A stretch of 4,943 bases of DNA, from IMG/VR virus record IMGVR_UViG_2531839449_000028. One strand, written 5' to 3'. The notes below the pieces were generated by a model. It did not search any database and was not told where the DNA came from. It saw only the letters and a list, made by a program, of their open reading frames with translations. Shown here one piece after another: positions 1,201 through 2,046 of the stretch (position 1 is the stretch's first letter; each line of letters opens with the position of its first letter). This stretch comes from a virus. Lineage: Duplodnaviria > Heunggongvirae > Uroviricota > Caudoviricetes. The translations under genes and the position numbers were made by a program.

Positions 1201-2046
1201 ATGAAAGATAATTGGCTTAAGGAACGATTAACTAAAGTAAAACAGGATTCACATCTCTGGAGTGCATTTATAGACGCTTTACAGGATGTCTGGAATGAGG
1301 CAGTAGAACCAATATTAACAAGAATAAGTAATAGAAAATCCTTCTTCACTATGGACAGTGAGGATATGGATGCCCGCATAGCTGAATACGGGCGTTTTTT
1401 CGTTATCACTGAAAAAGATAAGGCTCGTAGGCCAATGCTGCTGGCACAACGTTTAGATGAAGTGCACTTTAAAGGCACTATCTTGCCAATTGAGCAGACA
1501 TTCTGGCGTGAATTCGGTTGTATTCCTGTTAGTTGGGAACCGCTGTATGCACCTGTAAATATAGAAAAACACCCCTATGGTTCATATTTTGCGACCGAAA
1601 TAGAAATACCTACGGCACAGGCTCAATTCGGTGAGTTCTTCCTGACATCAAGGGGGCTGGTCGTTGTTGATCAGAACAAGCTATATCGCTCATATGGAGA
1701 GCAGGATAAAGAAGCCGCTGTACAGAAATTGTTATCTGACTTCGAAACAGTAATAGCCCCTTTATTGCCATTGCATATTGTTTTTGATGGCGTCTCGTTT
1801 CGGCTTAGTGCTGTATTCCCTGAAGTGGCAGAAATACTAAATTGCTTGTCTACGGATGTTTCGGTAATTGAAGGTGTTTATGTTACTGAGAGTATGGCTG
1901 ATATGCTATCCCGTAGTGATACCTCCTGCCAGGTAGACAATATTTCTCTTAACGCCATACCGAACCGAACGGCAGAAAAGCAATTACATCTTGATGTAAC
2001 CCCACTCGATGCGTGGCCTTTGGATTACCACCTTCAACCTGTTTAA
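1201..2046 (+). CDS. Hypothetical phage tail/baseplate protein, possibly a distant P2 gpI / Mu gp48-type baseplate wedge homolog with a C-terminal extension
   Basis: 281-aa ORF with a good RBS (GAGG at 1192-1195, 5-nt spacer, ATG 1201), lying between the gene remnant and the tail-fibre gene. There is a weak recalled resemblance to Tail_P2_I proteins: ...RLDEVHFKGTILP... versus the HxKGT motif of P2 gpI, and ...YFATEIEIP... versus ...FRLDIGVLE.... The product assignment is tentative. Confidence 0.6.
   Translation: MKDNWLKERLTKVKQDSHLWSAFIDALQDVWNEAVEPILTRISNRKSFFTMDSEDMDARIAEYGRFFVITEKDKARRPMLLAQRLDEVHFKGTILPIEQTFWREFGCIPVSWEPLYAPVNIEKHPYGSYFATEIEIPTAQAQFGEFFLTSRGLVVVDQNKLYRSYGEQDKEAAVQKLLSDFETVIAPLLPLHIVFDGVSFRLSAVFPEVAEILNCLSTDVSVIEGVYVTESMADMLSRSDTSCQVDNISLNAIPNRTAEKQLHLDVTPLDAWPLDYHLQPV

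Follow-up and report, generated by a model that had tools for sequence, protein, structure and literature searches.

A D6-like gene 16 product as a baseplate wedge subunit with a hypervariable, predicted disordered C-terminal tail and a conserved terminal hydrophobic–Asp motif

A 4,943-nucleotide stretch of DNA (the window) from the Caudoviricetes record IMGVR_UViG_2531839449_000028 contains an open reading frame (ORF) of 281 amino acids (aa), whose product recalls the baseplate wedge proteins of phages P2 and Mu yet is considerably longer than either. Is it a wedge protein, and what is the additional C-terminal segment for? A preliminary description, made from the sequence alone, tentatively placed the product in the P2 gpI/Mu gp48 family, singled out an unexplained extension of about 100 residues, and considered a novel protein as the alternative. 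Here, the ORF is identified as gene 16 of a D6-like (P1-group) Escherichia coli phage-plasmid, and its product is the single-copy triplex subunit of the baseplate wedge. The presence of one gp16 per wedge, bundled with two copies of BplA, has been seen by cryo-electron microscopy (cryo-EM) in P1 and would hold here by orthology. As such, the protein is already known: it is an annotated D6 protein with a solved P1 ortholog and a curated Pfam family. What is added here is modest: where the tail begins and how long it is, its hypervariability and disorder, a near-invariant triple hydrophobic–Asp motif and the statistics behind it, and the modular architectures in which this motif occurs.

The identity of the gene follows from several independent searches. 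The ORF is present as first described, with an ATG start, a Shine–Dalgarno sequence and strong conservation, and it closes with a stop codon at 2044–2046. Its product is 100% identical to D6 orf37 (YP_009914714.1, locus H7U15_gp090, “similar to P1 gene 16”), the two genes differing at 3 of 846 nucleotides, all of them synonymous. By megablast, window positions 895–4650 map to the bplA-16-R-S region of Escherichia phage D6, and the window also matches many D6-like E. coli phage-plasmids of ~92–95 kb at 96–99.9% identity. The gene order bplA-16-R-S is kept in every locus long enough, among ~100 loci from genomes and viral contigs. A collection of 5.8 billion proteins yielded 59 homologs of the gene 16 protein at E ≤ 5e-47, and an exhaustive profile search of 1.84 billion proteins yielded 252 cluster representatives (50% identity) of the gp16 family. 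Such conservation marks the ORF as a real gene and not a chance reading frame; for the same reason, the minus-strand ORFs that overlap it (1164..1478, 1315..1449 and 1610..1771) are assumed to be mechanical. The match to phrog_2015 is full-length (residues 1–276, E = 3.4e-131). A single-sequence phmmer search recovered the PDB chain Gp16 of the P1 baseplate (278 aa; 9ay5, 9vzk) at E = 2.4e-59, and the family profile aligned its positions 1–273 to residues 1–276 of P1 Gp16 at E = 1.8e-91. Each of the 59 homologs, among them a 97%-identical cluster, bears a precomputed assignment to PF26903 (Phage_P1_Gp16). This model is newer than the Pfam copy that was scanned, which accounts for the empty hmmscan against Pfam-A, in which no family was found at E ≤ 1 for the gene 16 ORF, P1 gp16 or eight longer homologs. 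An NCBIfam scan of the ORF returned nothing useful, and a literature search naming “PF26903” found no papers.

The P1 ortholog has been visualized in place. The P1 baseplate comprises six heterotetrameric wedges, each made of one PmgA, one gp16 and two BplA conformers (PMC12810830), and the preprint behind 9ay5 names the assembly of BplA+, BplA− and gp16 the triplex, with gp16 as its “lever” (bioRxiv 10.1101/2025.07.21.665459). In the P1 cryo-EM work, the fibres are anchored on gp16. The gene 16 protein shares the fold of the solved P1 gp16 wedge core, and this core fold is common to the solved single-copy wedge or triplex subunits of the gp7/gpI/TssG type, a structural superfamily of contractile-injection-system baseplates. 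Databases tell a different story: phrog_2015 and the RefSeq products D6 gp090 and P1 gp034 carry the name “tail tube protein”, a label handed down from an older P1 annotation, “baseplate or tail tube”. A role in the tail tube is refuted by the solved P1 baseplate structures and can be considered very improbable, and the label should be corrected to baseplate wedge (triplex) protein, the equivalent of gp7 and gpI. Plasmid copies of gp16 at NCBI are named “hypothetical” or “phage tail protein”. Earlier P1 proteomics detected gp16 with a weak virion signal and no role assignable by HHpred, and described R as gp8-like (PMC9024508); one further P1 cryo-EM paper (PMC12355955) does not mention gp16.

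How close, then, is gp16 to gpI and gp48? The lengths given in the preliminary description are right (176 aa for P2 gpI, 180 aa for Mu gp48), and the strings quoted there are all found in the translation: HFKGT at residues 89–93, YFATEIEIP at 129–137, and those from the C-terminal region. Membership in Tail_P2_I or DUF2313 is not supported, as neither matched in Pfam at E ≤ 1 and the protein has 281 aa against 176–180 aa. The HMMER family profile retrieved no gp48, PA0619 or gp7 chain from the PDB, and hhalign detected no signal between the gp16 family profile and the single sequences of gpI and gp48. Profile–profile comparison covered the gpI side, Mu gp48 being compared as a single sequence. 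Here, the gp16-core profile (190 sequences; number of effective sequences, Neff, 5.5) aligned collinearly with the gpI profile (Neff 2.2), residues 7–203 to 3–174 over 152 columns, with weak statistics (P = 0.025, HH probability 1.9%) from a gpI profile that is shallow (all listed hits ≥70% identical). The alignment joins RLTP with RLLP, (E)IH-x-KGT with (F)IH-x-HKGT, and the last β-strands of both proteins, and leaves gp16 with an internal insertion relative to gpI at ~104–140. On this alignment, the whole of gpI (176 aa) would therefore correspond collinearly to gp16 residues 1–204. The KGT that gp16 truly shares with gpI, where HKGT spans residues 80–83, gave the initial link to gpI some basis; YFATEIEIP is variable even among members of the gp16 family. 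What endures of the gpI/gp48 proposal is thus the wedge role, borne out by a core fold shared with solved single-copy wedge subunits, and what lacks support is membership in their sequence families. The P1 authors similarly found gp16 structurally like T4 gp7, yet their HHsearch and HHpred searches were negative (bioRxiv 10.1101/2025.07.21.665459). These negatives, together with the missing Tail_P2_I and DUF2313 matches and the insignificant hhalign comparisons with gpI and gp48, are the case for a novel protein unrelated to gpI/gp48-type wedge proteins. That idea is already refuted by the match to P1 Gp16 in the PDB and by complete identity to an annotated D6 protein of family PF26903, and retains next to no credibility. 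Transferred from P1, the position of gp16 would be that of T4 gp7, P2 gpI, Mu gp48 and pyocin PA0619.

The C-terminal extension is real, but both smaller and more widespread than first described. The shared core ends at about residue 204, leaving ~77 aa (residues 205–281) instead of ~100, and P1 gp16 (278 aa) and most of the family carry such an extension as well. Its P1 equivalent has never been seen, because the deposited gp16 chains (9ay5 and 9vzk) hold only 204 and 190 of 278 residues. Within the family, residues 1–200 are conserved, and none of the 27 invariant columns lies beyond residue 197; a surface segment at ~128–143 is variable. Residues 201–260 are hypervariable, with a majority-residue fraction of ~0.22 versus 0.5–0.9 in the core, and residues 261–280 are conserved again. 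Over 44 non-redundant loci, mean pairwise identity is 0.28 in the gp16 C-terminal region and much higher elsewhere, at 0.59 (core), 0.55 (BplA), 0.56 (R) and 0.50 (S N-terminus); judged by identity, the C-terminal region diverges twice as fast as any of the others. Residues 205–281 contain 12 Asp and Glu, 3 Lys and Arg, and 12 Ser and Thr. A first AlphaFold2 (AF2) model, from a multiple sequence alignment that mixed short and long forms, was mediocre, with a predicted local distance difference test score (pLDDT) of 67.5. A more diverse alignment of short forms only gave a better core, and a segment, residues 217–256, devoid of secondary structure at pLDDT < 50.

Beyond this linker, the conserved end of the chain consists of three tandem pentads of the form hydrophobic–Asp–x3, which read LDVTP-LDAWP-LDYHL here and FDRTR-ADDLL-LDSDA in P1. 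D270 never varies among 50 short forms that reach down to 24% identity, and D265 and D275 are each kept in at least 90% of them. Searched with a regular expression, 137 of 182 family members contain the motif after residue 200, as opposed to 2.7 expected from shuffles, and a single match falls within the first 200 residues of the same proteins. Usually, the motif lies no more than 12 residues from the C-terminus. In the retrieved loci, it is present in 60 of 105 gp16 orthologs versus 6 of ~2,060 other ORFs.

At 281 aa, the protein is a short form of a family whose longest members exceed 1,300 aa. When the 182 members were sorted into architecture classes by strict match to the regular expression, 53 showed the plain order of core, linker, motif and chain end. 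Repeated units of domain and motif were found in 40, a motif followed by a further domain in 27, a large insert ahead of a terminal motif in 13, and an insert, a motif and a further extension in 4; the remaining 45 had no strict match, several of them containing degenerate copies. The extra C-terminal domains of the common 350–480-aa forms have no Pfam match. In a few very long relatives, Pfam identifies immunoglobulin-like (Ig-like; Big_2) and ConA-lectin-like (Laminin_G_3) domains after the core, and the C-terminal end of gp16 would therefore be exposed on the baseplate periphery. Long Xenorhabdus forms (500–728 aa) feature repeated modules of ~150 aa, flanked by the motif and without a Pfam match. 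One Xenorhabdus bovienii member of 212 aa was considered as a natural tail-less form and rejected, as a frameshift splits this ortholog (locus L105, 7001–8697; FO818638.1) at the boundary of core and tail into ORFs of 212 aa and 300 aa. The 300-aa ORF opens with MPLDAWALD and holds a second copy of the motif.

Taken as a whole, these observations are best explained, with a good deal of confidence, by a division of labor in which the gp16 core builds the wedge, the linker acts as a tether and the terminal motif holds the fibre module. Residues 1–204 would constitute the wedge core. Two BplA (gp6/gpJ-like) chains would contribute their N-termini to a bundle with the N-terminal helix of this core, the remainder of which would complete the trifurcation unit on the baseplate rim. 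These core steps have been seen by cryo-EM for P1 and are transferred here by full-length homology and the fold match. Residues 205–263 would form a flexible, fast-evolving tether, and residues 264–275 a conserved docking element at the end of the chain. This element may hold the peripheral fibre module, in the shape of a gp8-like gpR dimer, the trimeric N-terminus of gpS, or both, on the wedge. Straightening of the fibre upon receptor binding would then pass through gp16 to BplA and trigger contraction of the sheath. The tethering and docking steps are inferred from the conservation pattern, disorder in both prediction and cryo-EM, density at the rim, the exposed modules and co-variation with gpR. 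The density in question is weak and fuzzy and lies over P1 gp16 at the baseplate rim, where the fibres emerge (PMC12810830; bioRxiv 10.1101/2025.07.21.665459). The co-variation takes the form of a partial Mantel correlation between gp16 C-terminal and gpR identity, with core and BplA identity held constant (r = 0.47, p = 0.0005).

The likely partner of the gp16 C-terminus is gpR, which two P1 papers assigned by HHpred as a T4 gp8-like wedge protein (PMC9024508; bioRxiv 10.1101/2025.07.21.665459) and which the latter relates to A511 gp105 as well as T4 gp8. In PHROGs and RefSeq, gpR is labelled “tail fiber assembly protein”. The notion of C-terminal fibre attachment is itself not new here, since the P1 preprint proposed that the fibre attaches to the gpR dimer and/or the unmodelled gp16 C-terminus (bioRxiv 10.1101/2025.07.21.665459). 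An accessory domain at the baseplate–fibre interface, as initially suggested for the extension, agrees with that proposal in its location; in its nature, the extension appears to be a flexible tail with a terminal motif and not a folded domain.

Several considerations weigh against this explanation. At the sequence level, homology of the gp16 core to gpI is not significant. The gp16 C-terminal region shows no partial correlation with the S N-terminus, and its correlation with gpR is gone when only short forms are compared. Moreover, gene R directly adjoins the 3′ end of gene 16, so that mosaic exchange would leave the same signal and the co-variation can reflect physical linkage on the DNA; the correlation is therefore weak evidence. 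Neither phmmer nor profile searches found a solved relative of gpR or of the gpS N-terminus in the PDB, and the similarity of gpR to gp8, not reproduced with HMMER profiles against the PDB, rests on published HHpred results. The motif may be a structural junction and not a docking peptide, because it recurs between repeated domains in the long Xenorhabdus forms. Finally, there is the precedent of Mu: its single-copy wedge subunit, gp48, receives the trimeric N-terminus of the fibre not on a C-terminal tail but on an internal “fiber docking loop” formed by residues 133–155 (PMC11915804).

The Mu precedent leads to an alternative in which gp16 is a wedge subunit but its C-terminal 77 aa are not the attachment site of fibre or gpR. 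The fibre would dock on a loop of the core as in gp48, with the tail either serving as a spacer or folding back onto the same or a neighboring wedge (BplA, gp26) for ring closure. The variable surface segment at ~128–143 could provide such a loop, and the predicted disorder of the tail, the recurrence of the motif between internal repeated domains of long forms, and the missing partial correlation with the S N-terminus are all compatible with it. In a mere spacer, however, neither the invariant Asp nor the 12-residue motif would persist among members as distant as 24% identity, and a motif packed stably on the ordered wedge should show in the 3.2 Å maps, for which the deposited chains end near residue 204. 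The fuzzy density over gp16 at the fibre exit speaks against it as well. Core-loop docking thus appears unlikely, and attachment of the fibre module through the terminal motif is the preferred explanation.

Tentatively, attachment through the terminal motif may be given a more specific form. Conceivably, though the odds are not in its favor, the triple pentad is a tethered docking peptide that joins the invariant wedge, in plug-and-socket fashion, to an exchangeable fibre module made of the gpR dimer, the gpS trimer or both. Three tandem pentads in one chain might engage the trimeric fibre N-terminus pseudo-symmetrically, solving the 1:3 mismatch, and the recurrence of the motif between inserted domains of long relatives would reflect its use as a reusable connector. 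If so, the P1-like fibre–baseplate junction would gain a defined and mutable sequence handle.

Gene 16 itself is ordinary as far as phage biology is concerned. The fibre–baseplate junction is the sole part of the P1-group phage tail still unresolved, and an ordered core followed by a hypervariable disordered linker and a nearly invariant 12-residue acidic motif presents a concrete target there. P1-group phages are major transducers and, as phage-plasmids, carriers of resistance genes. The layout of gp16 suggests a site for fibre-module swaps in host-range engineering.

The features of the window are collected in Table 1.

Table 1. Features of the window, in order of position
Feature	Position	Strand	Basis
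3′ part of IS3-family insertion sequence (IS) element (IS1203/IS629-like); terminal repeat ends ...CCCGGGGCGGTTCA at 896	1..896	+	Pfam, plasmid annotation, sequence
IS transposase ORF	156..854	+	Pfam rve, HTH_21, rve_3
bplA 3′ remnant (gp6/gpJ-like wedge gene), ~last 98 of 476 codons	895..1190	+	phrog_1369 402–479 of 489; D6 annotation
Shine–Dalgarno GAGG, 5 nt 5′ of gene 16 ATG	1192..1195	+	read from sequence
Gene 16 ortholog, 281 aa + stop, baseplate wedge/triplex subunit	1201..2046	+	ORF list, D6/P1 homology, phrog_2015
Conserved wedge core, residues 1–204 (N-terminal helices + α/β body)	1201..1812	+	corresponds to modelled part of P1 gp16 and, putatively, whole P2 gpI
Hypervariable acidic Ser/Thr-rich linker, residues 205–263, predicted disordered	1813..1989	+	conservation, AF2, composition
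Triple hydrophobic–Asp pentad LDVTPLDAWPLD, residues 264–275 (D265, D270, D275)	1990..2025	+	conservation, motif counts
10-bp GC-rich hairpin, 3 nt 3′ of gene 16 stop	2050..2075	+	RNA fold −18.1 kcal/mol, z = −3.1
Gene R ortholog, 148 aa, PF26881 Phage_P1_tail_fiber_R	2141..2587	+	phrog_2032 at 1.5e-74; D6/P1 annotation
Gene S (long tail fibre), 5′ 784 codons, runs off window	2590..4943	+	frame open to end; D6/P1/P7 S annotation

Upstream of the intact gene 16, bplA is interrupted after ~codon 378 of 476 by an IS3-family element, which the annotation of a related plasmid calls “IS3-like element IS1203 family transposase”; homology to D6 begins at window position 895, equivalent to 5996 of the D6 locus (L001). 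Because bplA is cut, the phage-plasmid element of the window is probably unable to build a baseplate, that is, defective for its assembly. Similar IS3-family elements are found in the two related D6-like plasmids examined, in S in pVP441 and in gene 16 in CP031917. Insertion into bplA, S or gene 16 across related plasmids suggests recurrent inactivation of the tail module by IS elements.

Downstream, the hairpin that follows gene 16 has a counterpart of unrelated sequence at the equivalent place in P1 (locus L002, 4713–4737; z = −3.6), just upstream of the annotated late promoter LPs; no T-run follows the hairpin in the window or in P1. The hairpin may serve RNA stability or attenuation, or belong to the late-promoter architecture. 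The N-terminus of gpS, encoded at window 2590–2680, bears a motif, (L/V)(L/V/I)AD(V/M/I)Q(Y/F)xExY, found at all P1-like loci (S orthologs, L001–L104) and reading PLLADVQYFELY here (residues 19–30), which is a candidate element for baseplate attachment on the fibre side. Further into gene S, window 3259–3722 is occupied by a 222-bp tandem repeat (2.1 copies, 79% matches), the counterpart of the “b1/b2” repeated elements of P1; compared with D6, the window carries an additional unit (74 aa). Long ORFs on the minus strand over this repeat, such as 3294..3704, are probably artefacts of it. An exact copy of the D6 Cin-inversion site cixR lies inside gene S at window 4016–4035. On its 3′ side, the S frame of the window continues into a part 88% identical to D6 S′ (Sv′), not Sv, and the invertible C-segment is therefore oriented opposite to, or arranged differently from, that of the D6 reference.

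Among known systems, the single-copy wedge subunits P2 gpI (PF09684), pyocin R2 PA0619 and Mu gp48 (DUF2313) have no significant sequence similarity to gp16, and gpI (176 aa) and gp48 (180 aa) are without its ~77-aa C-terminal tail and its insertion at ~104–140. Mu gp48 receives the fibre on an internal loop, and neither P2 nor Mu has a gpR-like gene between the wedge and fibre genes, unlike the bplA-16-R-S arrangement of P1-like phages. T4 gp7, which works with the gp8 dimer, is a far larger protein of ~1,030 aa with many extra domains, compared to 281 aa here, and has no detectable sequence similarity to gp16; the long fibres of T4 attach through gp9. Much closer is P1 gp16 (YP_006504.1), with 39% identity overall, ~48% in the core and ~28% in the tail, and with a motif that lacks the Pro and Trp of PLDAW. 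Closest of all is D6, which has the same gene 16 protein and the same neighbors bplA, R and S, and from which the window differs in that its bplA is broken by an IS3-family element and its S has an extra 222-bp repeat and continues into a Sv′-like variable part.
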